A stretch of 64,000 bases of DNA from Patescibacteria group bacterium. GTDB taxonomy: Bacteria; Patescibacteriota; Patescibacteriia; JAHIZJ01. This document shows, piece by piece, positions 2,857 to 31,513 of this stretch. Each line of letters begins with the position of its first letter. Within the stretch, counting starts at the first letter, position 1. Location: contig JBAZUB010000002.1 of NCBI GenBank assembly GCA_041661625.1, positions 28,059-92,058 of the forward strand, given 5' to 3'. The position numbers were made by a program, and so were the translations under genes. The notes beneath the pieces are model-generated. The model searched no databases, was not told where the DNA came from, and saw only the letters and a list, made by a program, of their open reading frames with translations.

Positions 2857-4064
2857 TGTTTGATGATCTCGGTTAATGCGGACGCCAGCGCGTCAACTTC
2901 GATTTTAGAATTATAAACCGACAGACCGATCCGGGCGGTAGCCGGCACGTTTAGTTTTTGATGCAACGGTTGGGCGCAATGATGCCCGGCGCGCACGCAA
3001 AAGCCGCGCTCATCCAGCCAGCTGGCCAGGTCGTGGGCATGCAGTCCGGTAATGGTAAATGCAATCACGCCTCCGCGCTCGCTAGGTGATGGTCCGTAGA
3101 TCTTCAAGCCCGGTATTTGTGAAAGTTTTTTGTAAGCATATGCGGTTAGGTCTTTCTCGTGCCGGATTAACGCCGGCCAGCCGAGTTTCTGAAGATAAGC
3201 TACGGCGGCTCCCAGGCCAGCTACCTGAGCCAGGGGCGGCGTACCGGCTTCCAGCAGGCCCGGCATGGGCTTGAAATCACTATGCTGCCAATCAACCCGG
3301 CTGATCATATCTCCGCCGGTCTGGTAGGGTTGTAATTCATCCCAGTGCTCGGGTGCGACATAGGCGACGCCGATACCGGTGGGGCCGTACATTTTGTGTC
3401 CTGAGAAGACCAAGAAGTCCGGCTTAAGTTTTTTGATATCAATTGGTAAATGGGCGATACTTTGGGCGGCGTCGACGACCACGACCACGCCAATTTTTTG
3501 CGCCGCACGAATAATATTTTCAATTGGGTTAATCGTACCAAGTACATTTGATACATGAGTCAACGAAAGCAGTTTTACGCCGGCCAGTGTTTTTGTTAGA
3601 TTGGTTAAAACCAATTTACCAGCCGCATCGATCGGCCAGTAGCGCAGAATTAGACTTTTTTCCTTGGCTAGTTGTTGCCACGGCACGATATTGGCGTGGT
3701 GTTCCATCTCGGTCACTAGAATCACGTCACCGCGCTTGAGATTTGGCCTTGCCCAAGCCTGGGTGATCAGGTTAATTCCTTCGGTGGTGCCTTTTGTGAA
3801 AACTATCGATCGTGCATCGGACGCGTTTAGAAATTCGGCTACCTGGCTACGCACGCGCTCATAGGCCACGGTCGCTTCTTCGGCCAGGGCGTAGACGCCC
3901 CTGTGAATGTTGGCGTTGGTGGTTTCGTACCAGTTGGTTTCGGCGTCGATAACCGATCGCGGTCTTTGGCTGGTGGCTACGGAATCAAAGTAAATAAACG
4001 GCCGGTGGCGCGCCGCCATGGATTTAAATATTGGGAAATCCTGTTTGATGTTTTTTGGTATCAT
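2832..4064 (-). CDS. sufS: cysteine desulfurase SufS (class V aminotransferase)
   Basis: 410 aa; HHANIVPWQ, SGHKMYGPTGIGVAY (PLP-lysine region), C-terminal RAGHHCAQP active-site Cys loop. Confidence 0.9.
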   Translation of the reverse strand: MIPKNIKQDFPIFKSMAARHRPFIYFDSVATSQRPRSVIDAETNWYETTNANIHRGVYALAEEATVAYERVRSQVAEFLNASDARSIVFTKGTTEGINLITQAWARPNLKRGDVILVTEMEHHANIVPWQQLAKEKSLILRYWPIDAAGKLVLTNLTKTLAGVKLLSLTHVSNVLGTINPIENIIRAAQKIGVVVVVDAAQSIAHLPIDIKKLKPDFLVFSGHKMYGPTGIGVAYVAPEHWDELQPYQTGGDMISRVDWQHSDFKPMPGLLEAGTPPLAQVAGLGAAVAYLQKLGWPALIRHEKDLTAYAYKKLSQIPGLKIYGPSPSERGGVIAFTITGLHAHDLASWLDERGFCVRAGHHCAQPLHQKLNVPATARIGLSVYNSKIEVDALASALTEIIKQWPTFTTR

Positions 4065-17999: not shown

Positions 18000-18764
18000 T
18001 CAAAGGTCATAAAGAGCGAATAGACCACTGTATGGCTTTTTTGTAATTTTGTCAAGGTCCTTCTGGTTATGCAGGCTCCACCAATTACCACGATAACGAT
18101 AGACCTGTAGTGATTTAGGATCACTAGAAAATAGGTCTTCGTTCACTTCATCGAGATCGCTGGGAATGTTTTGTGCTGTGTACTGTCTCAATAACTGTGG
18201 TCGAATAATCATGCAGCCGGGTGACCACATATGTTGTAGCTTCGTCCGTCTAGATGATTTAATTTGATTCACTCCTTTAGCTGTGCCTACGCTGATTACC
18301 TTTCCTTGGCTAAACATAAGTTGTAAATGCGTGTCCGCTTCCTTATGTCTGTTGGTTACAAGTAATACGCTTTTGTCTGATGGTAATCCATGTATAATCA
18401 ACTTCGTAAAAAGATCCGGCGATAAGAGTACGTTGCCATCGCAATACAAGAATGGCTTTGTCCATTTCATTGTTGCCGCGCGTAGACGAGCAGGAAGGCT
18501 CATGTTCGGCGTATATTTTCCAAAGTGTATGCTGACCCCCCGTGATTTCCAATACGCCCGCGTCCTTGCAGCACTGCGATTGTGTTCTGGCCAGCCAAGA
18601 AGTACTACTGACCGTACGTTAGCTTGTTTTGCCATGGCAATGAGGTAATACAATAGCGGCTGGTTGGCGATTGGATAAAGCACTTTTGGGCCACGGTATT
18701 TTATTTTCTTAAAATAGTCGGAAATGCGTTGCCCGCGTCCCCCGACCGCAATTACCATTTTCAT
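18000..18764 (-). CDS. sugar-1-phosphate nucleotidylyltransferase (GlmU/RmlA-like N-terminal fold)
   Basis: 254 aa; MKMVIAVGGRGQRI...PKVLYPIANQPLLYYLI matches NTP-transferase signature. Confidence 0.65.
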   Translation of the reverse strand: MKMVIAVGGRGQRISDYFKKIKYRGPKVLYPIANQPLLYYLIAMAKQANVRSVVLLGWPEHNRSAARTRAYWKSRGVSIHFGKYTPNMSLPARLRAATMKWTKPFLYCDGNVLLSPDLFTKLIIHGLPSDKSVLLVTNRHKEADTHLQLMFSQGKVISVGTAKGVNQIKSSRRTKLQHMWSPGCMIIRPQLLRQYTAQNIPSDLDEVNEDLFSSDPKSLQVYRYRGNWWSLHNQKDLDKITKKPYSGLFALYDL

Positions 18765-18807
18765 AGTATGTATCTAAAGTAATATATAACTGTTGATTAT
18801 CTATTTG

Positions 18808-19521
18808 CTATTGGGGGTATTCTGGTTTCCATCCAATAGCATTCTTTACGCTGTGTATTCGTCCGGGATTATTGGAAACGGCATAAAATGTCGTAAAACG
18901 TCCCGGTATCTTTTTTATCTGCACAGCTTTTAAGATCACACTCACACAATCCTGATGATATAATATCACGCGATCATATAAGGGATCTTCGTTGTATCGA
19001 ATCTCGTTTGTCGTATTCACACCCCCGAAACGAATACAAACAACTTCGAGGTTGTGATGTACCGCATAATAATTTCCCAAGCGTTCACCATACACCTTAC
19101 TGGCTCCGTAGGGTGTATCAGGAATTGGGATCGTACTTGTTGTTTTCTCACCTTCACGCATTAAATGGTATGTATCTGCGTGAACAGAGCTGGCAAGAAT
19201 AACTCGTCGTACACCCGCTGCTACTGCAGCTCGGAAAATATTTTCCAGCATTACTTTGTTGTCGGCTACACTGTGCTCGTTTGGATAATCTTCAGCAACG
19301 TTCCAGGCTAAATGGATGAGCACATCGTGGCCTTTAACGAGCGTATACAGCTTATGATATTCCCGGGCGATGTTAACACGTTTAACCGATTTGTTACTCT
19401 TCTGATTTATATCAATGCAGGTAACGGGGTATTTACGCAGTAAAACAGGGCAGATAATTGTGCCAATATTACCCAAGGCTCCGGTTACCACTACTCGGGG
19501 ATGCGAACGATATAATCTCAT
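18808..19521 (-). CDS. NAD-dependent epimerase/dehydratase (SDR family)
   Basis: 237 aa; VVVTGALGNIGTII Rossmann motif, YGASK catalytic Y-x3-K. Confidence 0.7.
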   Translation of the reverse strand: MRLYRSHPRVVVTGALGNIGTIICPVLLRKYPVTCIDINQKSNKSVKRVNIAREYHKLYTLVKGHDVLIHLAWNVAEDYPNEHSVADNKVMLENIFRAAVAAGVRRVILASSVHADTYHLMREGEKTTSTIPIPDTPYGASKVYGERLGNYYAVHHNLEVVCIRFGGVNTTNEIRYNEDPLYDRVILYHQDCVSVILKAVQIKKIPGRFTTFYAVSNNPGRIHSVKNAIGWKPEYPQ

Positions 19522-21122
19522 CGATTTATTTCTGCAAATGCTCTCAGTACTGCAGATATTGTGGCATCAAGATCCTCCCTATCTAACCCGGGGTTTACAT
19601 AGAGATTAAATAGCCGCTTGGTGACCTCTTGGGATACCGGACAATCATTTACGTGTGAGCTTTTTAACAACTCCACTTCGGGCAGAGACAGCGGGTAAAG
19701 CTTTTTTATCGGGATTCCTAATTGCATTACCCGATTAAGAAACATATCACGCTTCTCTATCAGGCCTGCTGGCAGTAATCCAGTCAGGTAAAAATAGGCG
19801 TGTTCAGAATTTGGATCTGTTTTCTGAAAAGTGATTCCACTTCCCGCTATCTTTTTCTGCAGATAATTTGCATTATTTCGGCGTATTTGATTATTGACAT
19901 CAAGCCGTTTATTTTGCTCAATAGCAATCGCGGCCTGAATATCTGTAAGTTGGTAATTAAAACCCAGGCGATTATAGTCATACGCATCCAGATCTTCTTG
20001 ATTGATGCCATTATTTGCGTCCGAACGTATATGGCTGTAGTACTTTTCATTATTTGTGGCTATTAAGCCACCCTCCCCGCAAACTATATGTTTCGTTTGA
20101 TAAAGACTTGTGCAGATGATGTCACCATACGAACCAACGTACTTTCCATTATATCTCGCGCCCGTAGCTTGGGCGCAATCCTCTATCAGCACTAACTTAT
20201 GTTTATCGCAGATTATCCTCAGCGCGTTCAAATTGACTGGCTGACCATACATATGGACAACGATAACTGCCTTAGTGTGCTTGGTGATTTTCTTTATAAC
20301 GTCTTTGGGATCAATATTAAAAGTTTCAGCCTCAATGTCAGCGAATATCGGTTTCGCTCCAACTTGTAATACCGTTGAGCAATCCGCAATATTGGCCAGT
20401 GCGGGGACGATCACTTCATCGTTGGATTGAAGATCTAAAGCAGAAAGAGCAAGATGTAGCGCGGATGTACCAGAATTGACGGCATTGACAAAACGCTGTG
20501 ATAACATACGAGATATCACATCTTGAAATTCGCGGACTACTGGACCTCCTTCCGGTCTCGATAATATTCCGGAATGTAGCACTCGTACAACAGCCTCGGT
20601 TTCTTCGTCGCCGATCAGATGCGCATTTATTTTTTGCATCATTTGAGCAATATGCGCTTTGGCATCGTTGTTATCCGGTTGTTTACTACTATAGTGTTCA
20701 TGAATCATATCTCGGACTGCGTTTGGCCGAAGTTCATAGTTTCTGATATCGACAACATCAATCCAGACTAACTCATAGGTACCCACATAATGAGTTCCGT
20801 ATTGATACTCGGGTCCGAAAGCATTTCCCAGAATGCCACCCGTTATTTCGCAAAGAAAAAATAATTCAGTCTGACCCAGTGTGTCTGGATGTCCCGACGA
20901 TTGCTTAGTAAATAGCTCTTTTACTCTTATGTCCACACCAAGCTCTTCGTGGCACTCTCTCTGAACGGCTTGTTCTGGTGTTTCATTATTGTCGACTCCT
21001 CCGCCAGGAAATACCCAGTATGCCTCTTGTCCGGGTTTGGTTCTTTTTATAACTAACACGTGGTTTTGATGGATTATCACCGCTCGCGCTCTTAATTTAT
21101 CCTTCGTTTTTTGATTCGTCAT
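19518..21122 (-). CDS. fusion protein: N-terminal Nudix hydrolase + C-terminal DegT/DnrJ/EryC1/StrS PLP-dependent sugar aminotransferase
   Basis: 534 aa; Nudix box GGGVDNNETPEQAVQRECHEELGV; DegT motifs AVNSGTSALHLAL, VIVVHMYGQP, IEDCAQATGA, TKHIVCGEGG. Confidence 0.8.
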   Translation of the reverse strand: MTNQKTKDKLRARAVIIHQNHVLVIKRTKPGQEAYWVFPGGGVDNNETPEQAVQRECHEELGVDIRVKELFTKQSSGHPDTLGQTELFFLCEITGGILGNAFGPEYQYGTHYVGTYELVWIDVVDIRNYELRPNAVRDMIHEHYSSKQPDNNDAKAHIAQMMQKINAHLIGDEETEAVVRVLHSGILSRPEGGPVVREFQDVISRMLSQRFVNAVNSGTSALHLALSALDLQSNDEVIVPALANIADCSTVLQVGAKPIFADIEAETFNIDPKDVIKKITKHTKAVIVVHMYGQPVNLNALRIICDKHKLVLIEDCAQATGARYNGKYVGSYGDIICTSLYQTKHIVCGEGGLIATNNEKYYSHIRSDANNGINQEDLDAYDYNRLGFNYQLTDIQAAIAIEQNKRLDVNNQIRRNNANYLQKKIAGSGITFQKTDPNSEHAYFYLTGLLPAGLIEKRDMFLNRVMQLGIPIKKLYPLSLPEVELLKSSHVNDCPVSQEVTKRLFNLYVNPGLDREDLDATISAVLRAFAEINR

Positions 21123-21445: not shown

Positions 21446-21504
21446 TGTTATAATGCAGACAACACATAAACATATTGACAAAATTACACTATTTCTGCTA
21501 AGGT
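21446..21504 (+). promoter_or_regulatory. Candidate promoter region for Panacea operon (extended -10 TGtTATAAT at 21446-21454; alternative TTGACA-18-TAAGGT at 21475-21504)
   Basis: Motifs read directly in AT-rich intergenic region upstream of 21527. Confidence 0.4.
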
Positions 21505-21526
21505 TTCGGTCATTAAGCAAGAAACT

Positions 21527-22030
21527 ATGACCCCAGTAGCGGGAACAAAACAACAAGAGAAGGTCACCTATCAGGACGTAGCTGATTACTTCTTGGCATT
21601 GGGAAATGAAACAGGTGAGCCAATATCCAATCTTAAGCTCCAGAAGCTTGTCTACTATGCACAAGCTTGGCATCTAGCAAATACATCGGAGCCTCTATTT
21701 AATGCTAACTTTCAAGCTTGGGTACATGGTCCCGTTATACCTGAGTTGTACCACAAGTTAAAGACGTATGGATCAGCGCCTATTCAGAGTAACGCCGTCT
21801 TAAATGAAGTAAAAAACAGATTTGATTCCAATACACTAACTTTCTTAGAACAGGTTGCAGATGTGTATATGCCTAGAAGTGCTTATGAATTGGAGTTGAT
21901 GACACATATGGAGGATCCGTGGATTCTCGCGAGAGTTGGGCTTGAGCCAAACCAAGGAAGCGAAAATACTATCTCTGAGGAAATCATGGCTAGATTCTAT
22001 GGGGCAAAAATACACAGTAGAACCAAGTAG
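21527..22030 (+). CDS. Panacea-domain (DUF4065) protein, SocA/PanA-like antitoxin
   Basis: 167 aa; YFLALGNETGEPISNLKLQKLVYYAQAWHLA...FQAWVHGPVIPELY matches DUF4065 core. Confidence 0.75.
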   Translation: MTPVAGTKQQEKVTYQDVADYFLALGNETGEPISNLKLQKLVYYAQAWHLANTSEPLFNANFQAWVHGPVIPELYHKLKTYGSAPIQSNAVLNEVKNRFDSNTLTFLEQVADVYMPRSAYELELMTHMEDPWILARVGLEPNQGSENTISEEIMARFYGAKIHSRTK

Positions 22031-22439
22031 CATCCCTCAGAGAACTGAATTAGTTAATCCAACGACTGTTAATCCAAATCAGAACGTTTCTTTTAATTTT
22101 CGTCCTTTATGTACTAAAGGCGGTAAGTTTGAGTACAACAATAGGGAGCGAGGATATTTTGTTAAACTCCTCGAACGACTGCGCGATCTTTCGACAATGA
22201 GTAGGGGGCAACTTATAGCACCAGGCGGAAAAGGATTACGGTGTCATCCTATACGGTTCACCGACCAAGGAGTGAGTGAATCGTCATTTGGTATACCTGG
22301 GCAAGACATTGATGAAGATGCGTGGCAATTTGAAATCTCTTCTAATAAGCACGGTCGTGTTCATGGATACTTTGTAGGTAGCGTATTTTATATAGTGTGG
22401 CTTGACCCTGATCATGCACTTTATCCTAGGCAGCGATAA
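21999..22439 (+). CDS. hypothetical protein (146 aa), overlaps antitoxin-like gene by 32 nt; candidate toxin/partner
   Basis: Start chosen at MGQKYTVEPSS; C-terminal HGRVHGYFVGSVFYIVWLDPDHALYP; stop abuts SIR2 start (TAAATG). Confidence 0.45.
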   Translation: MGQKYTVEPSSIPQRTELVNPTTVNPNQNVSFNFRPLCTKGGKFEYNNRERGYFVKLLERLRDLSTMSRGQLIAPGGKGLRCHPIRFTDQGVSESSFGIPGQDIDEDAWQFEISSNKHGRVHGYFVGSVFYIVWLDPDHALYPRQR

Positions 22440-23420
22440 ATGGGTACACACAATTTAGTATTGTTAACCGGTGCTGGCTTCTCCAAAAACTTTGGAGGTT
22501 TTTTGGCTGCAGAAATGTGGTCGCATATATTTAATCACCCATTAACTAAAAGACACGCTGAATTGCGTAAGTTGCTAATGGCTGATCAGGATTATGAATC
22601 AGTATACACACTGGTTATGACTGGTAATGGTTTTTCTCCTGAGTGCCGAAACGATTTCAACATTGTTGTTGAGCAAGCCTATAAAGCGTTAGACGATACA
22701 TTGAGAAAATGGCAATTCACGGGCGAGCTAAATCAAGTAAATACTTATGGTATCGGCAAGCTGTTAAGCCTTTTTAATTCCCCCCATGATCGCTGCTATT
22801 TCTTTACATTAAACCAAGATCTATTCATGGAAAGATGGTGGGGATACAGGGCACCGAGTGTTCGTTGGTTTCCTGAACAATTTTACTCTCTTCATGGCGC
22901 TGAATTGGAACATAAGGATTTCATAAAACTACCGTCATCTATGGATGAAAAAACTGTGAATGAAGCGATAGCACTACATAGCGGCTTAACGTATATTAAA
23001 ATACACGGTTCTTACGGATGGCTATCTTCTGATGGTAAAAACTTAATGGTGATTGGAAAGGATAAAACGATCGCCATTTCAGCAGAGCCAGTATTGCGGA
23101 GATATTTTGATATATTCAAAAAGGTAATGAGCGAGGGACAAAAAAAGCTGCTAATAATTGGATATGGATTTGGGGATTCTCACATTAACCAAGTTATTGC
23201 CGATGCAGTCCGGAATAGAGGATTAAAGGTATGTATTGTTTCAACAAGTCCATATAAGGACTTATATTCTCGTATAGAACAAAACTATCCAGATGCCTTA
23301 GACATCCTTGATATCGGATTGGATGGCTATTTCCCTTACAGTCTTGCGCAAGTCTTTCCTGGTGATCAATCTGAAACCGTATACTTCGAGGAGATCAAAC
23401 GTAATCTTTCCGGCATCTAA
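22440..23420 (+). CDS. SIR2_2-domain protein (putative NAD+-consuming defence effector)
   Basis: 326 aa; LVLLTGAGFSKNFGG, FFTLNQDLFMERW (cf. TTNYD), KIHGSYGW, LLIIGYGFGDSHINQ correspond to SIR2_2 (PF13289) conserved blocks. Confidence 0.7.
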   Translation: MGTHNLVLLTGAGFSKNFGGFLAAEMWSHIFNHPLTKRHAELRKLLMADQDYESVYTLVMTGNGFSPECRNDFNIVVEQAYKALDDTLRKWQFTGELNQVNTYGIGKLLSLFNSPHDRCYFFTLNQDLFMERWWGYRAPSVRWFPEQFYSLHGAELEHKDFIKLPSSMDEKTVNEAIALHSGLTYIKIHGSYGWLSSDGKNLMVIGKDKTIAISAEPVLRRYFDIFKKVMSEGQKKLLIIGYGFGDSHINQVIADAVRNRGLKVCIVSTSPYKDLYSRIEQNYPDALDILDIGLDGYFPYSLAQVFPGDQSETVYFEEIKRNLSGI

Positions 23421-24871
23421 ATTTTACGCCATTTTTCTTCCCGGTCACGTTGCTCATATAGTTCAAAAAGTCCTTGTAAAATACTATAAAAATCAGAGAC
23501 CAACATACCCCACCCAATTTCAATGTGTTTTACGTCAAAGTGGAACTCGGGTTTCTCCTGACCCCACACGACGTCCACAGGTTGGAGGCTTTTAATGATA
23601 CTCAAGTTTCCTCCGATAATTGAGTCAAGCATTTTTTGTAAACCAGATAGCCTCGTTTCAAAATCATCTATGGAGTCGCCATATCGTTTCTGCAATTCAA
23701 GTTTATCCGAAAGTCCTTGCTTTATTATGTTTACTATATGAAATACTGCATTTTTATATAGTTCTTTATTGCCTGAGTGATCAGTGTCTGCATTGAGTGA
23801 GTAGCTCAATCTCCGAAAGTCTAGGACTTGCTCTCGATCTTTGAGCTGCTCGACATTAAAATTAAGGAGTCTTTCTATTCGATGCTTGTTACTTCCGAGA
23901 TAATGCTCGATCGGCTTCCAAAGTAGTACCTCAAACGGAGTCTCATCCGGCCATAGCTTCATTAGATGAAGCTTTGTTTTTAAGCAATAGTCAAAAACTA
24001 TTTGAGCAAGTGTTATATGTGAAGATTGCGGAAATGAATAATCTAAAGAAATAACTTTCTCACCGTGTATTATTTTACTTCTGAGTTGGTAAAAAGAGTC
24101 TGACCAGTTCGCGATTTCTTTCTTCTGTCCCAGAAGAAGTTGTATGCGGTCGCCCATTTCCTGTCCTTTACGACTATACTGTTGAATATTCAAGAGGGTT
24201 TCTAATGCGACTCCTAGGGAAATAATCATGTCTTCAGAAGTGACTAGTGGATCGGCAACATGGGAACGATTATACCAATATACTGATCTAAGAATCCTTT
24301 CTGCCTCAAGTTTTTCATCTTTCGTTCCGTTTGCTCTCCTTTCATTAAGTGTGCAAAGTGCTGAAAATATATCTTTTGATACCTCTCGGCTTACGTTTGT
24401 TACATTGATATAAAACGGGGTTTGTATTTTTGTTTCATCAATCATTAGTATATGGATACCGCGTCTTGAGTGCAATGAAAGGCCGCCACTTGTTTTATCT
24501 AGATTGAGTTCATAGGAATCCGATTTGAAATTCTCATAGGAGGACGGAAAAAACCTTTTCTGATGGCTTAAGTTTGCATAAGCTACAATGTTTGTTGCTG
24601 TAATTAACTCATCGTCGACTTTTTTATCGTATTGAGCAAAATTGTCTTTGCCGTCGCTAAGCCTTGATGCAATAACAGGATTTGCTAGCTGACTGTTATC
24701 GATAAAACCTCGATAAATTTTTACCAACTGATCAACACGTTGAGCGGCGTTTGAGATTTTCCCAAAACGCTTTTGTTTTTCTTTTAGATATGGCCAAAAG
24801 CAAATATCACCAATAGTAACAGACTCGTCGAGTTCTAGATAGGGGAATATTGTAAATGCTATTTTAGTCAT
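23417..24871 (-). CDS. hypothetical protein (484 aa) with HEPN-like R-x4-HG motif (FYQLRSKIIHGEKV)
   Basis: Large ORF converging on SIR2 gene with 4-nt 3' overlap; motif-level only. Confidence 0.5.
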   Translation of the reverse strand: MTKIAFTIFPYLELDESVTIGDICFWPYLKEKQKRFGKISNAAQRVDQLVKIYRGFIDNSQLANPVIASRLSDGKDNFAQYDKKVDDELITATNIVAYANLSHQKRFFPSSYENFKSDSYELNLDKTSGGLSLHSRRGIHILMIDETKIQTPFYINVTNVSREVSKDIFSALCTLNERRANGTKDEKLEAERILRSVYWYNRSHVADPLVTSEDMIISLGVALETLLNIQQYSRKGQEMGDRIQLLLGQKKEIANWSDSFYQLRSKIIHGEKVISLDYSFPQSSHITLAQIVFDYCLKTKLHLMKLWPDETPFEVLLWKPIEHYLGSNKHRIERLLNFNVEQLKDREQVLDFRRLSYSLNADTDHSGNKELYKNAVFHIVNIIKQGLSDKLELQKRYGDSIDDFETRLSGLQKMLDSIIGGNLSIIKSLQPVDVVWGQEKPEFHFDVKHIEIGWGMLVSDFYSILQGLFELYEQRDREEKWRKI

Positions 24872-24884
24872 TATAAGTTAGCGA

Positions 24885-26723
24885 TTATTGTCTTCTTGGA
24901 TCATCTGCTGAATAAGTTTTACCGTTCTGCCAATCAAACATAAAACCAAAATTGGTTTGTAGCCATTTGCCAAGATCTGTAATATACTCCCACACTTTAT
25001 CTCGGTCACCGCCTGTACTAAGTTTGATATATACTTCTTTTACCTCCCTCTGTATCGCTTCCCGATATTTGCTTTGAGAAAGTTTGTTCTTTATCCAATC
25101 AGGTATTCCTTCCCCCATGAACTCGACCACTTTTTGTTTATCTGAATGGGCGGCAGCTAGCGCTCCCACTGAAACCATAAGCTGGATCGTGTCGCCAGCA
25201 AGTTTATCTAAACCAGCTAATTCGTATTCTTTGTATAGTTCATGTAGGCGCATTACGGCAAGTGATGCACCACGGCTATTACCTATAGGTATTGCGCTTT
25301 CAGCAAAGCTACTATAAACCCACGCTAAATCATACAACCAATGCGATAAATCGGCACTTATACCTTCACGTTTAGACAGCTCTTTCTTTTTTTGTATGAG
25401 TGGTTTTGCTACTACGCTAATTGCATCAAAGTACACCAAGGGATACCAATCAGGCTTATTGTTTCGATAAGCGCTATCAAACGAAAGAAGTGTATTATAA
25501 TAGGCACCAAAAAAACTTGTATAATCATAGTTGGGCATTATCGGCTGGTTTGTAAAATCATAACTTGGAATCAGCCTTTCGCCTAACCAACCAAGATCCC
25601 GAAAAACGCCATCCAAATCATTTTCTGAATGATCTGTAAATAACATTTCCCCAATTTTTCTATACCCATACATAATGTTCACAAATAGAGGATTGTGCGA
25701 CTCTATGCAGGAATCCGCAAGGTTTTTCCAAAATACTAATAGTTCAGCAAGATCGTTGTAATGTTTATTCTCAACAAATAATTCTGCTATACGTTGAGAG
25801 GCTTCATAAATTATCGATGCTGCGTTTTTCGAGTGATTATTAACAGCCAGCTCAACTAACAATTCGAGAGATTGTACAAAGAACGCTTGATAATAACCGC
25901 AAAGGTTTGAATCTGGATCCCAGCTATCATTTTTGTATTTTCTTCCCACTGTGTAGTTTTCTAGAAATGAAGTTGTCAATACCTCTACGGAGTCGCGAAA
26001 ATTTCTTAAGGTTGCGTAGTCTCCGCTTCGCACGGACTTTTCCGCAATGCTGAGCAATAACTCAAATGGATTTGGTGAATTAGATACTTGCTTAGTTAAT
26101 GAGGTATAAGCCGATCTTTGTCGTTCTTGTGTTATTGCTTTCTTTACATTTTCGTTCTCGATTTCTTTTATTTCTTCCGGAGTAAGGTCACCTTTGTTTG
26201 TAATATATCTATCATATTTTTCTATCTTATCTTGTGAAAGTATGCTTACAGCCTGAAACCATGGTGTGGTAGGATCCGGCACTCCATAACGATCAAGCAG
26301 GAAGCAGCGAATATCCCCATAGTTCATATTCTTTTGAATCGATTGTAAAAAGGTAGTTGGCCTAAGATAACGTGAAAAATAAAATGAGAGAATTATGAAT
26401 AATAAAAGCGACAATAATACAAATGCCAACGAAATTATACCAAGGTACCCGGATGAAAATAGATCCGTAAGATTAAAATCGAGTTGCGGAATTATATCAT
26501 GGTGGGTATACGAGATTGCGTATGAGGCAACGCTGGTAAATATAATACCTGCCAAACTGAAAGATATATAAGCAAGTAGTATTCGAGTTCGAAATATAAA
26601 GGAGATTGAACGATATGAGTAACTTCCATAGACAAGCTGTAGGTATACAAAAACAGCCGCAACGGATATACCAAATACCGTGACCTGTAAACTCAGTAAT
26701 GTATTATAATAGCTACTTAACAT
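24885..26723 (-). CDS. membrane protein (4 N-terminal TM helices + ~450-aa soluble domain)
   Basis: 612 aa; hydrophobic segments in first 120 aa; no recognisable catalytic motif. Confidence 0.5.
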   Translation of the reverse strand: MLSSYYNTLLSLQVTVFGISVAAVFVYLQLVYGSYSYRSISFIFRTRILLAYISFSLAGIIFTSVASYAISYTHHDIIPQLDFNLTDLFSSGYLGIISLAFVLLSLLLFIILSFYFSRYLRPTTFLQSIQKNMNYGDIRCFLLDRYGVPDPTTPWFQAVSILSQDKIEKYDRYITNKGDLTPEEIKEIENENVKKAITQERQRSAYTSLTKQVSNSPNPFELLLSIAEKSVRSGDYATLRNFRDSVEVLTTSFLENYTVGRKYKNDSWDPDSNLCGYYQAFFVQSLELLVELAVNNHSKNAASIIYEASQRIAELFVENKHYNDLAELLVFWKNLADSCIESHNPLFVNIMYGYRKIGEMLFTDHSENDLDGVFRDLGWLGERLIPSYDFTNQPIMPNYDYTSFFGAYYNTLLSFDSAYRNNKPDWYPLVYFDAISVVAKPLIQKKKELSKREGISADLSHWLYDLAWVYSSFAESAIPIGNSRGASLAVMRLHELYKEYELAGLDKLAGDTIQLMVSVGALAAAHSDKQKVVEFMGEGIPDWIKNKLSQSKYREAIQREVKEVYIKLSTGGDRDKVWEYITDLGKWLQTNFGFMFDWQNGKTYSADDPRRQ

Positions 26724-27123
26724 TTCTATTATTTTTTAGAGTTGAGAATCTCATGAATCGGTCAATAATTGGTTGTCGTTCAGCAATCAACAGATCAAGC
26801 TCTTCATCCGAAAGATCGGCAAAGGGGTCGCTTATGGCGACCTTAGTTGCTTTGTAGGACCCTTTTAGCTTATAGGCCTTATCCAACCCAGCTTCACGGG
26901 CCCGCCAATCGTGATTCTTAAGCAGCCCTTTATGGACGTTTAAGAGTGTTTCGTCGGGTAGGTGCTTATCCATTAACTCCTGCCATCCCTTGCTTCTGGT
27001 GAGCTCCTGGGGCTTCTCAGCTGAACGTGAACTGTACCCCGCCTCGCGCATGGCAGAGCTGACCGATTTTCGGGGTTTTTCGGAGATTATTCGAGCGACG
27101 CGTAGTTGTTTTTGGGTAGCCAT
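26713..27123 (-). CDS. phage terminase small-subunit-like HTH protein
   Basis: 136 aa; N-terminus MATQKQLRVARII...SAMREAGYSSRSAE resembles Terminase_2 motif (LTxKQ..F....A...AGYS). Confidence 0.4.
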   Translation of the reverse strand: MATQKQLRVARIISEKPRKSVSSAMREAGYSSRSAEKPQELTRSKGWQELMDKHLPDETLLNVHKGLLKNHDWRAREAGLDKAYKLKGSYKATKVAISDPFADLSDEELDLLIAERQPIIDRFMRFSTLKNNRNVK

Positions 27124-27169: not shown

Positions 27170-27700
27170 CTAATCTGGGAGCGTAAGCCAAAAACCATAG
27201 TAAGCGTTCCCACAAGACAATAACAACCCAACTAAATATAGTAGCCTATACCATTGGGGGGCGGCTTTTTCCGCAACGAAGTTAATTGTGAGAGAATATA
27301 TTAGAAAACCTAGTGGCGGAAACAGCCACGCGATAAGATTTAGAAAACCGATCACCCTAACTACGACTACTTTTTTGTTTTTCTTATTCGCATACCATTT
27401 CCCGATGTAATGCCCGATAGTGATGGCAGCGATTGCCGAACCTACAATAATGTAAAATGGCCGCTGCACACTGAGATCATGTGAACTCAGAACCAATTGA
27501 AGGGCAATGTACGCAATAAACATAATAGCAAAATATATGACTACCTCAATCACTCTGGCAATTTTCACTCCTATTGATACTAGCTCATCATTACTATCCC
27601 TGTCATTATCTTGCTTCTTTTCTTTGGCTAATTCAGCCCCGCAGCTTCCACAAAATTTGTCTTTCAGTGTCGTTTCCTTCCCGCAATTTTGACAGTACAT
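27170..27700 (-). CDS. zinc-ribbon (CxxC-x10-CxxC) membrane protein
   Basis: 176 aa; MYCQNCGKET...CGSCGAEL then four hydrophobic helices. Confidence 0.45.
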   Translation of the reverse strand: MYCQNCGKETTLKDKFCGSCGAELAKEKKQDNDRDSNDELVSIGVKIARVIEVVIYFAIMFIAYIALQLVLSSHDLSVQRPFYIIVGSAIAAITIGHYIGKWYANKKNKKVVVVRVIGFLNLIAWLFPPLGFLIYSLTINFVAEKAAPQWYRLLYLVGLLLSCGNAYYGFWLTLPD

Positions 27701-27993: not shown

Positions 27994-28821
27994 ATGAAGG
28001 TATATTTCGATAGCAAAACGTTTGACTCTTATATTAAGGCAAACAAAAAGCTGGTACTGTCGACCAAGAAGTGTCTGCCAAGAAAACGACGATATTTAAT
28101 CGACCTTGGAATCATTTCGGCCGGCATACATGGAACAGACAATTTGATACGTAAGCAGTTTATCATTGGAAAAGTAGATAGCGAATCAAGATATGGATTA
28201 TATTCAGATCGTAGTAAAGAATATGACAAATTAGCAATAGAAAAAGAACTGTTGATAAAAAAGCTGATCCCCTCCAGGTTGATGATCAGAAGTGCTATTA
28301 TTGATCAGGCTTATGTTGAAATTATGGATATTGCGAATCGCGGCGTACAAGCTAATCCTGATGAAATAAGTACCGTTAGCTTCTTAGAAAACTGTGTAGA
28401 AATATATTTTCCATATTTGTTAAATGATCTAATTGGTTATTCCAAAATATCTAAATTAAAGATGTTTAGAGTTAAATCGGGGCGGCGATTTAATACTGTC
28501 TGCCAAAGATGTGGGGCGCCATTAAAGCGAACAAACACAAAAACAAAACTAATGCCGGTCGTCAATGATAATATTTGGTACGTATATACGCCCAGTCATT
28601 GCTATAGATCAGAAAACAGATCTTGCTCAGAAAGTAGAAATAAAAGGCAGAGTCCAAAATTAAAACCACCTTATGTTGCTGTGGGCAATTGCGTATTTTG
28701 TCATGTAATTACCACATCGGTAATAACAAAGAAAATACATGGAGCGGTATATAACTTTTGTAGCCAATCACACTACCAAAGCATGCGAAGGGCTCTAGTA
28801 AGGCGAAAACAAAGGGAGTAA
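27994..28821 (+). CDS. hypothetical protein with C-terminal FCS/TRASH-like zinc-binding motif
   Basis: 275 aa; C-terminal CQRCG...C..C and CVFCHV...YNFCSQSHY pattern. Confidence 0.4.
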   Translation: MKVYFDSKTFDSYIKANKKLVLSTKKCLPRKRRYLIDLGIISAGIHGTDNLIRKQFIIGKVDSESRYGLYSDRSKEYDKLAIEKELLIKKLIPSRLMIRSAIIDQAYVEIMDIANRGVQANPDEISTVSFLENCVEIYFPYLLNDLIGYSKISKLKMFRVKSGRRFNTVCQRCGAPLKRTNTKTKLMPVVNDNIWYVYTPSHCYRSENRSCSESRNKRQSPKLKPPYVAVGNCVFCHVITTSVITKKIHGAVYNFCSQSHYQSMRRALVRRKQRE

Positions 28822-29582: not shown

Positions 29583-29765
29583 ATGGAATTTCTTACTAGA
29601 GATGAGGTAGCCAAATACTTCAGGGTGCACCCCCGTACGGTTATGCGCTGGCTCAAACAGGGCAGTCTTAGGGGCTACAAATTAGGCACAGGTAAAACCG
29701 CCCTACTTCGCATATCCAAGTCCGAGATTGAAAGATTTATGGAAAAATCTAAGATCACAAAATGA
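29583..29765 (+). CDS. excisionase-family helix-turn-helix DNA-binding protein
   Basis: 60 aa; LTRDEVAKYFRVHPRTVMRWLKQGSL matches HTH_17/Xis family; 4-nt overlap with recombinase start. Confidence 0.7.
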   Translation: MEFLTRDEVAKYFRVHPRTVMRWLKQGSLRGYKLGTGKTALLRISKSEIERFMEKSKITK

Positions 29766-31513
29766 ACTCTACTGCTGACAAACAAGTTAAGCTGATCGCC
29801 ACGTACGCGCGTGTTTCAACGTCTCATCAGGAGGAACAACAAACGATACAAAACCAGTTAACCGCACTGCGTGAGTTTGCCAATAAGAATAATTACACGA
29901 TAGTCGAGGAATACACAGATGATGGCTGGAGCGGCGATATGCTGGCTAGGCCATCGCTTGATAAGCTTCGTCAGGATGTAAAGAACAAGATTTGGGAAGC
30001 GGTGCTTATTTATGACCCCGATCGTCTAGCTCGTCGTTACTCATATCAGGAGCTGGTAATGGATGAGTTGCGGGAAGCTGGAATTGAGGTAATGTTCATT
30101 ACCGTTACTGCTCCCAAAAACGACGAAGATAAGATATTGCACGGAGTAAGGGGTTTGTTTGCCGAATACGAGCGGGCGAAAATATCGGAGCGTTTCCGTC
30201 TCGGTAAACTTCGCAAGGTCAAAGAGGGGCATATTTTGGTGAGCGAGCCACTGTATGGCTATAACTATATTCCCAAACAAGACGACCGGCACGGCTACTA
30301 TAAGATCAACCCGGAGGAAGCGCGCGTTATCAAAATGATATTTTCGTGGGTAGCAGACGAAGGTTTGACCATTAGAGCGGTAATCAGAAGGCTACAGGAA
30401 ATGGGAATAAAGCCGCGCAAGAGCAAACGAGGAGTTTGGAGCACCAGCACATTGAGCACGCTGTTACGCCACCGTGCGTATATCGGCGAGGAACACTGGG
30501 GGAGTTCCTACGCGGTGGTTCCAGACAATCCGCTCAAGCACGAAAAATATAAGAAGATGAAGAAAACTAGTCGTCGGAAAAAGCCTAAAGAGGAATGGTT
30601 TACTATACCTGTACCCGCAATTATAAAAGCAGAAGTGTTTGAGAAAGTAGGGCGGCAGCTACAAGCAAACTATACTTTTTGCCAGCGTAACAAGAAGAAC
30701 GAATATTTACTGTCTGGTAAAATAGAGTGTGCTTGTGGGAGAAAACGGGCAGGAGAAGGCGCTTTGCAAGGTAAGCACCTATACTATCGTTGTGCTGACA
30801 GGGTTTACAGTTTTCCACTGCCTCATAAATGTAGAGAAAAAGGCATCAATGCCAGAATAGCTGACGATCTGGTATGGCAGAAAATAACAAAGCTAATGAC
30901 TTCGCCGGAGCTACTTTCTCAGCAGGTCAGTCGCTGGTTTAAGAGTAGGCAGGATAAATCTCAAGCGGCATTCGTTGACGTTGATTCGCTTAAAGGGCAG
31001 GTTGAGAAGCTCAAGGGGCAGGAGGAGCGTTATAACAAAGCCTACGGCGCGGGAGTGTTCAATCTGGAACAGCTTAAGGAGTACACGTCTCCCATTAGGG
31101 AAAAGATCGGTCAGATCGGTAAACAGATAATTGGCGCTAACCGTGAAGCCAACAGAATACAGCTAGAAGTGCCCGATCAGACCGAGATGGTATCATTCAC
31201 CCAGAAAGCAAGAACGACGTTACAGGACTTGAATTTTGAGGCAAAAAGGGCGATAATATTGAACACGGTCGAAAGAGTTGTAGGTACAAAGCAGAATTTA
31301 CAAGTATTCGGATATATTCCAATCACTCAAAATGTCTCATTCAACACTATCGGTCGGTATAGTCGGGCTGCCAAATGTCGGGAAATCCACCCTCTTCCAG
31401 GCGCTGACCAAAAAACAAGTCGATACTTCAAACTACCCTTTTGCCACTATCGATCCGAACGTAGGCGTGGTAGCCGTGCCCGACGCACGGTTAGACGCAT
31501 TGGCCAAGTTTAG
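29762..31513 (+). CDS. large serine recombinase (resolvase catalytic domain + recombinase domain + zinc ribbon + coiled coil)
   Basis: N-term LIATYARVSTSHQ..., AVLIYDPDRLARR; Cys pairs C..C and C..C; ORF continues 180 nt into ychF in another frame so true 3' end uncertain. Confidence 0.8.
   Translation: MNSTADKQVKLIATYARVSTSHQEEQQTIQNQLTALREFANKNNYTIVEEYTDDGWSGDMLARPSLDKLRQDVKNKIWEAVLIYDPDRLARRYSYQELVMDELREAGIEVMFITVTAPKNDEDKILHGVRGLFAEYERAKISERFRLGKLRKVKEGHILVSEPLYGYNYIPKQDDRHGYYKINPEEARVIKMIFSWVADEGLTIRAVIRRLQEMGIKPRKSKRGVWSTSTLSTLLRHRAYIGEEHWGSSYAVVPDNPLKHEKYKKMKKTSRRKKPKEEWFTIPVPAIIKAEVFEKVGRQLQANYTFCQRNKKNEYLLSGKIECACGRKRAGEGALQGKHLYYRCADRVYSFPLPHKCREKGINARIADDLVWQKITKLMTSPELLSQQVSRWFKSRQDKSQAAFVDVDSLKGQVEKLKGQEERYNKAYGAGVFNLEQLKEYTSPIREKIGQIGKQIIGANREANRIQLEVPDQTEMVSFTQKARTTLQDLNFEAKRAIILNTVERVVGTKQNLQVFGYIPITQNVSFNTIGRYSRAAKCREIHPLPGADQKTSRYFKLPFCHYRSERRRGSRARRTVRRIGQV

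Follow-up and report, generated by a model that had tools for sequence, protein, structure and literature searches.

A predicted PanAT-type toxin-antitoxin pair and an adjoining SIR2 gene as probably independent modules in a low-GC island of a Patescibacteria group bacterium

In toxin-antitoxin (TA) systems of the PanAT class, the Panacea-domain antitoxin PanA works through direct binding, and neutralisation depends critically on its GPV motif (Kurata et al. 2022, PMC8832971). T1, the biggest cluster of PanT toxins, is found across many phyla, including cyanobacteria and Mycoplasma/Spiroplasma, and its tested members are labelled 'mRNase' in SI Table S1. Accessory third genes occur with PanAT in small fractions of genomes and probably have no general role (PMC8832971). 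The SIR2 domain has been tied to the depletion of nicotinamide adenine dinucleotide (NAD+) in defence (Garb et al. 2022, as cited in PMC11514479). Here, a trio of genes is described in which a Panacea gene and a SIR2 gene stand close together on a contig of a Patescibacteria group bacterium (GenBank assembly GCA_041661625.1, contig JBAZUB010000002.1). The trio spans positions 21527-23420 on the forward strand of the 64,000-nucleotide (nt) stretch that was analysed (positions 28,059 to 92,058 of the contig, hereafter the window). It comprises a gene for a Panacea protein (panA), a middle gene (panT, also called ORF B after its open reading frame, ORF) and a gene for a SIR2_2-family protein. A preliminary description had taken the three genes for a possible new TA or abortive-infection system, in which a Panacea antitoxin is paired with a SIR2 effector through an unknown adaptor. 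The probable explanation is that two independent modules, a PanAT-class pair and a stand-alone SIR2, adjoin in a horizontally acquired low-GC (guanine-cytosine) island.

What had been said of the three genes at the level of the letters was accurate, as all quoted peptide motifs, the overlap and the abutting ATG are present. The panA and panT genes overlap by 32 nt (21999-22030), and the TAA stop codon of panT (22437-22439) is followed at a spacing of 0 nt by the SIR2 ATG at 22440. Called mechanically, the panT ORF begins at a TTG at 21936; the ATG at 21999 is preferred, since homologues align there. Position 21446, given earlier as the beginning of the module, lies 81 nt 5' of the first start codon, 21527 being the earliest start in frame. 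The three ORFs can be regarded as real genes and not as chance ORFs, because homologue families were found for the middle ORF and for SIR2.

The first two genes form a conserved unit. Relatives of ORF B were sought in one genome per species, which gave 386 loci, and the best 80 of these were examined together with six loci from other contigs. ORFs were called in each locus and then searched with purpose-built hidden Markov models (HMMs). The best 80 loci come mostly from cyanobacteria, and also from metagenome-assembled genomes (MAGs) of Patescibacteria/Saccharibacteria, one Gammaproteobacteria MAG and Sulfobacillus. Across genome and metagenome contigs, a Panacea gene lies directly upstream of 86 of the 89 ORF B ORFs; the other three are either truncated copies, which have scant or no sequence before them, or split genes. 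Where a pair is intact, its genes as called overlap in nearly every case, by 11-53 nt. On viral contigs (IMG/VR), Panacea is found upstream of ORF B in every one of 33 loci. Individual look-ups of three ORF B homologues gave a Panacea gene overlapping the ORF start each time, with unrelated genes downstream. Moreover, over 79 loci the bit score of PanA against its counterpart in the window correlates with that of ORF B against its own (Spearman 0.50, p 2e-6), which would fit joint inheritance of the two genes. A tblastn search of ORF B against GenBank phages returned nothing. A set of large, closely related IMG/VR contigs (L185-L206, ~33-141 kb, nearly all from sample 3300045988) carries Panacea with a divergent 198-aa (amino acid) relative of ORF B in the same position, and shows the Panacea-ORF B pair carried by a phage lineage.

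SIR2 does not belong to this unit. Within ~4 kb, a SIR2 gene occurs in none of the examined genome and metagenome ORF B loci except the window itself, and the 33 IMG/VR loci also hold none. The reverse search gave the same result. Neither Panacea nor ORF B was found within ~4 kb in 81 distinct SIR2 loci, drawn from look-ups and from a metagenome scan in which the best 80 of at least 384 loci were inspected, and neither PanA nor ORF B was found in 23 SIR2 loci on viral contigs. With no SIR2 in ~119 Panacea-ORF B loci and no Panacea or ORF B in ~100 SIR2 loci, the third gene is not conserved as a neighbour of the first two, an outcome that the preliminary description had itself named as one that would refute the module. 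The panA-panT-SIR2 juxtaposition is seen only on this Patescibacteria contig.

The genes upstream of SIR2 homologues vary from locus to locus. In three look-ups, the tightly linked upstream genes all differ, encoding a 146-aa protein, a DUF4145 protein and a DUF4238 protein. The first of these, upstream of the closest SIR2 homologue (L007), was considered as a relative of ORF B and discarded, as BLASTP found no similarity. Pfam searches of 19 tightly linked upstream genes gave DNA methylase, TPR, NUDIX, HsdS, M48 peptidase, UvrD C-terminus and oxidoreductase matches, and further ones to an SLH protein, HicB, DUF4145 and DUF4238. The idea that SIR2 habitually stands behind RNase-type (ribonuclease) toxins (RelE-fold, DUF4145, nearby HEPN_AbiU2) was also dropped, these 19 genes being a miscellany that includes housekeeping genes. 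No recurrent partner emerged from BLAST clustering of upstream genes, from clustering of ORFs of at least 80 aa within 3 kb, or from phmmer searches with ORFs of at least 35 aa within 700 nt; families were repeated only between near-identical contigs. Of the SIR2 homologues with sufficient sequence on their 5' side, roughly one in four directly adjoins or overlaps an upstream gene that is unrelated. The 0-nt spacing between panT and SIR2 therefore does not count as specific support for a functional connection.

SIR2 homologues (loci L007-L012, L093-L172 and L208-L218) often lie beside restriction-modification, TA, integrase or recombinase genes. HEPN_AbiU2 genes stand just downstream of the homologues in L007 and L009. 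In L133, a HicB antitoxin gene (3576-3911, +) lies 44 nt upstream of the SIR2 homologue, and this is a second case of a TA element directly beside this SIR2 family. The homologue in L011 is flanked by a serine recombinase, and that in L009 by tyrosine integrases.

Another reading is a lineage-specific capture, by which a SIR2 gene recently inserted in the panAT operon would follow the TA promoter, and inactivation of PanA would both free the RNase and raise SIR2. The abutting panT stop codon and SIR2 ATG, which leave no intergenic room for a separate promoter, would fit this idea, as would the SIR2 homologue placed closely behind hicB in L133. Capture is nevertheless unlikely. The arrangement occurs only once (P0001 and P0110 were found on two contigs each, taken as one contig), and unrelated genes are tightly packed in the compact genomes of Patescibacteria. 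A scan for promoters and terminators was uninformative, as it gave 7 promoter-like sites where 8.0 were expected, and no sign of autoregulation was seen, PanA being without a DNA-binding domain. A wider version, also judged improbable, combines two proposals: SIR2 would have been captured into the panAT operon in this lineage, so that one Panacea sensor/antitoxin gates both a RelE-fold RNase and an NAD+-degrading SIR2, and, separately, the ~330-aa SIR2 family would be an unclassified single-protein defence system.

The identities proposed for the first and third proteins hold, both of the HMM checks suggested in the preliminary description being significant. PF13274 (SocA_Panacea) matches PanA residues 38-132 at E 7.7e-21, with 75.6 bits against a gathering cut-off of 25.7, and PF13289 (SIR2_2) matches the SIR2 protein at E 6.4e-9, with 36.5 bits against a cut-off of 24.5. 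PanA is further matched by NCBIfam SocA_antitoxin (E 1.2e-24, below the equivalog cut-off) and, in PHROGs, by phrog_1281 (E 2e-45). It contains LKLQKLVYYAQAWHLA and HGPVIPELY, with GPV at residues 68-70. A sequence search of the PDB gave no relative of PanA, and the short repeats upstream of panA include no convincing operator.

The middle protein, which ends in HGYFVGSVFYIVWLDPDHALYP, is a toxin-fold protein rather than an adaptor. A fold match gives it the alpha/beta fold of the RelE/ParE superfamily, and its family comprises 109 close homologues and 1,282 representatives at 50% identity (E <= 0.001). Conserved blocks in an alignment of 34 members read LRCHPI, E..FG, HGRVHGFF and FYIVWLDPxHxLY; R60, H83 and R120 are the same in all members, and at least 90% keep H122, D136 and H139. 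No Pfam family matches ORF B at E <= 0.1, so that no RelE, ParE, HigB or YoeB profile is matched, and searching the PDB sequences with the profile of ORF B yielded nothing above noise, with no match at E <= 0.1. NCBIfam NF046006 (MAG6450 family) scores 28.8 bits against a cut-off of 40 and aligns with the C-terminal 37 residues only; on this score, ORF B is a relative and not a member of that family. The literature on 'MAG6450' was uninformative for ORF B, and the mollicute members of T1 would explain the weak match. The conserved His/Arg/Tyr pattern would favour an RNase over a ParE-like gyrase poison.

The supposed adaptor would be Panacea's own toxin, with a RelE/ParE fold and a relation to cluster T1. 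A tblastn hit leads to a Parabacteroides plasmid on which the SocA-domain antitoxin WP_004293873.1 overlaps the hypothetical protein WP_004293874.1 by 32 nt, and hhalign aligns the ORF B profile with the latter at 99.4% probability (E 7.5e-22). In Dataset S1 of Kurata et al. (2022, PMC8832971), these two proteins are a predicted PanAT pair with a toxin of cluster T1, an antitoxin without N-terminal domain and the order antitoxin-toxin. No mention of Patescibacteria was found in the main text of PMC8832971, and panT in the window extends cluster T1 to this group. The assignment also provides the biggest PanT cluster with a RelE/ParE fold and a clean set of ~119 loci.

Several points weigh against reading the locus as a TA pair beside an independent SIR2. 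The T1 toxin of C. cadaveris is toxic yet not neutralised by its PanA (SI Table S1, PMC8832971), and the T1 toxins of E. coli MOD1 and Salmonella phage Emek are not toxic in E. coli (PMC8832971). As two of the three tested toxins are non-toxic and the third is not neutralised, the T1 family has no experimental validation as a TA system. In addition, the spacing of 0 nt between panT and SIR2 makes it very probable that the trio forms one transcript, and some regulatory coupling in this genome is possible.

The behaviour of the tested T1 representatives could also mean that Panacea and ORF B are not a classical growth-arresting TA system, and that ORF B is an inactive or differently targeted RelE-fold protein with a role in, e.g., phage sensing or regulation. 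This would agree with the failure of ORF B to match any Pfam toxin model, and is given a low probability in view of three observations. The antitoxin-toxin order and the overlap are strictly kept throughout the ~119 loci, in different phyla and in viruses; the fold is of RelE type and has conserved His, Arg, Glu and Tyr positions; and the pair is found on mobile elements. A tripartite system, in which Panacea would counteract a SIR2 NADase and ORF B would serve as the adaptor between them, is highly improbable, for despite its operon-like packing on one strand (a 32-nt overlap, then a 0-nt gap) and the accessory third genes of some PanAT pairs (Kurata et al. 2022, PMC8832971), the neighbour is missing in both directions in the loci surveyed above, ORF B itself has a toxin fold and falls in a catalogued PanT cluster, the spacing is as unspecific as that of the quarter of homologues behind unrelated genes, and 'SIR2' is absent among the entries listed in the available part of the Kurata dataset.

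The AlphaFold2 model of the SIR2 protein shows one confident domain (predicted local distance difference test, pLDDT, 92.8), and many PADLOC SIR2 models match the protein, down to 1e-13. It has GAGFS, TLNQD, HGS and GYGFGD blocks. Among 32 homologues, no variation is seen in the Gly-rich GAG motif (G11/A12), T123/N125/Q126/D127 or H189/G190/S191; by analogy with ThsA and DSR2, the Asn and the His would be catalytic. Homologues (n=467) are ~330 aa long and many are from Patescibacteria, in which the family is frequent; it is also present on IMG/VR viral contigs, and has no conserved partner gene in ~100 loci. NCBIfam NF042942 (SIR2 family anti-phage-associated protein, an equivalog model) gives a local match at residues 213-269 only, with 47.6 bits against a cut-off of 500. 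The nearest solved structures are the SIR2 subunits of SIR2-HerA/Nezha (8yhx, 8j4u, 8sxx, 8sub, 8wld), with E 1.6e-13 in a profile search and, in Foldseek, E 7e-11, template modelling (TM) scores of 0.5-0.6 and 14-20% identity. SPARSA, KomBC and DSR2 follow in the Foldseek ranking; SPARSA 8jl0 matches over the SIR2 core only, and the match to DSR2 (8wks) is weak and likewise limited to the core. In the literature searched, the ~330-aa SIR2_2 family was not found described as a named single-gene defence system, and no relevant work came up on SIR2 in Patescibacteria or the candidate phyla radiation (CPR) or on pairings of SIR2 with antitoxins.

At 22480-22498 (+) of the window, 40 nt into the SIR2 coding region, a hairpin that resembles a terminator precedes a T-run (TCTCCAAAAACTTTGGAGG TTTTTTGG). 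Because the stretch encodes the conserved FSKNFGGFL motif, the hairpin is probably a side effect of the amino-acid sequence. If functional, it could attenuate read-through from panT.

Taken as two independent modules, the genes would work as follows. panA-panT would be a bicistronic type II TA pair of the published PanAT class, and to this extent the earlier TA idea can be kept, with SIR2 left outside the pair. PanT, given its RelE/ParE-type fold, would most likely be an mRNA endonuclease that arrests translation, and PanA, with its GPV motif, would most likely neutralise it through direct binding. The 32-nt overlap would allow coupled translation of the two genes. The SIR2 protein would most likely be a single-gene effector of abortive infection or defence that acts by degrading NAD+. 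Its gene would have landed right behind panT in this genome and, because of this position, is probably co-transcribed with the pair, without being a TA component.

Table 1 Positions in the window, strand and assignment of the gene trio and of the recombinase gene
Feature	Position	Strand	Description	Family or domain match
panA	21527..22030	+	167-aa stand-alone Panacea (DUF4065) antitoxin, no N-terminal DNA-binding domain	PF13274
panT (ORF B)	21999..22439	+	146-aa predicted toxin, RelE/ParE-superfamily fold	related to PanT cluster T1
SIR2 gene	22440..23420	+	326-aa single-domain SIR2_2-family protein, predicted NAD+-consuming	PF13289
Large serine recombinase	29762..31513	+	context gene, right edge of low-GC stretch	Resolvase, Recombinase, Zn_ribbon_recom domains

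The surroundings of the trio suggest a mobile origin. The GC content lies at 0.37-0.43 between ~21 and 30 kb, and at ~0.5 in most of the window. At the right edge of this low-GC stretch stands a large serine recombinase gene (Table 1), and the housekeeping genes for YchF, SSB, EF-P and RecA come after it. Because of the low GC content, the recombinase at the edge and the housekeeping genes beyond, the trio appears to sit in an integrated mobile island, with the serine recombinase as its probable integrase. No tRNA genes that would mark an integration site were found in the window.

Other genes of the low-GC region were also inspected. A 484-aa gene (23417-24871, -) and a 612-aa gene (24885-26723, -) converge on the SIR2 gene, the former overlapping its end by 4 nt. 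Save for a weak match to DUF2254, neither protein has a match in Pfam, PADLOC, NCBIfam or PHROGs, and a PDB sequence search gave nothing for the 484-aa protein. The 484-aa protein carries an R-x4-H motif (LRSKIIHG) reminiscent of HEPN nucleases, and the 612-aa protein has N-terminal membrane helices. The two genes may be a further defence gene pair in the island. Further along in the island are a 136-aa protein (26713-27123, -) and a 176-aa zinc-ribbon membrane protein (27170-27700, -). The former has no family match; its N-terminus gives the loose impression of phage small-terminase/helix-turn-helix (HTH) proteins. On the other side of the trio, a 534-aa protein (19518-21122, -) consists of an N-terminal NUDIX domain fused to a DegT/DnrJ/EryC1 aminotransferase. 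Its gene is part of a low-GC cluster for sugar modification, in which an epimerase and a nucleotidyltransferase are encoded at 18000-19521.

The supposed Panacea-adaptor-SIR2 system would be a false lead; what it reflects would be the ordinary clustering, within a mobile island, of a TA pair with a defence gene. That genes of a compact genome lie close together is no evidence of a functional module. Furthermore, the ~330-aa SIR2 family is widespread without a partner.

Compared with the described SIR2 defence systems, the protein of the window shares the catalytic domain and lacks the additional parts. Thoeris ThsA, DSR1/DSR2 and the SIR2-APAZ protein of SPARSA all have the SIR2 catalytic domain in common with it, and they also sit in defence or mobile islands. 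DSR1 and DSR2 are proteins of ~1,000 aa with a fused sensor region, whereas the SIR2 of the window has only 326 aa. It has no SLOG domain and no APAZ domain, and by Pfam and PADLOC the window neighbours include neither the TIR gene of Thoeris nor the short prokaryotic Argonaute (pAgo) gene of SPARSA. With SIR2-HerA (Nezha), it shares the SIR2_2 NADase core and its motifs; it is shorter than the SIR2 subunit of that system (~380-430 aa), and a HerA gene was found neither among the window neighbours (Pfam, PADLOC) nor in ~80 homologous SIR2 loci.

As for ORF B, the RelE/ParE toxins (RelE, HigB, YafQ, YoeB, ParE, MqsR) provide the wider frame of comparison. ORF B differs from them in having no sequence-level match to any Pfam RelE/ParE family and in adding an N-terminal segment of ~25 residues, which is modelled with low confidence. 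The usual partner of these toxins is RelB, HigA, ParD or similar, whereas that of ORF B is Panacea. Within PanAT cluster T1 (Kurata et al. 2022, PMC8832971; Ernits et al. 2023, PMC10440598), ORF B is a distant relative, being ~32% identical to the Bacteroides member, a protein of 251 aa that has ~90 residues beyond the aligned region. The SIR2 gene directly behind the pair is a further feature of the window. The stand-alone, GPV-bearing Panacea antitoxin upstream of the toxin gene and overlapping it is shared with cluster T1, and the 'mRNase' label of the tested members agrees with the RelE-like fold of ORF B.

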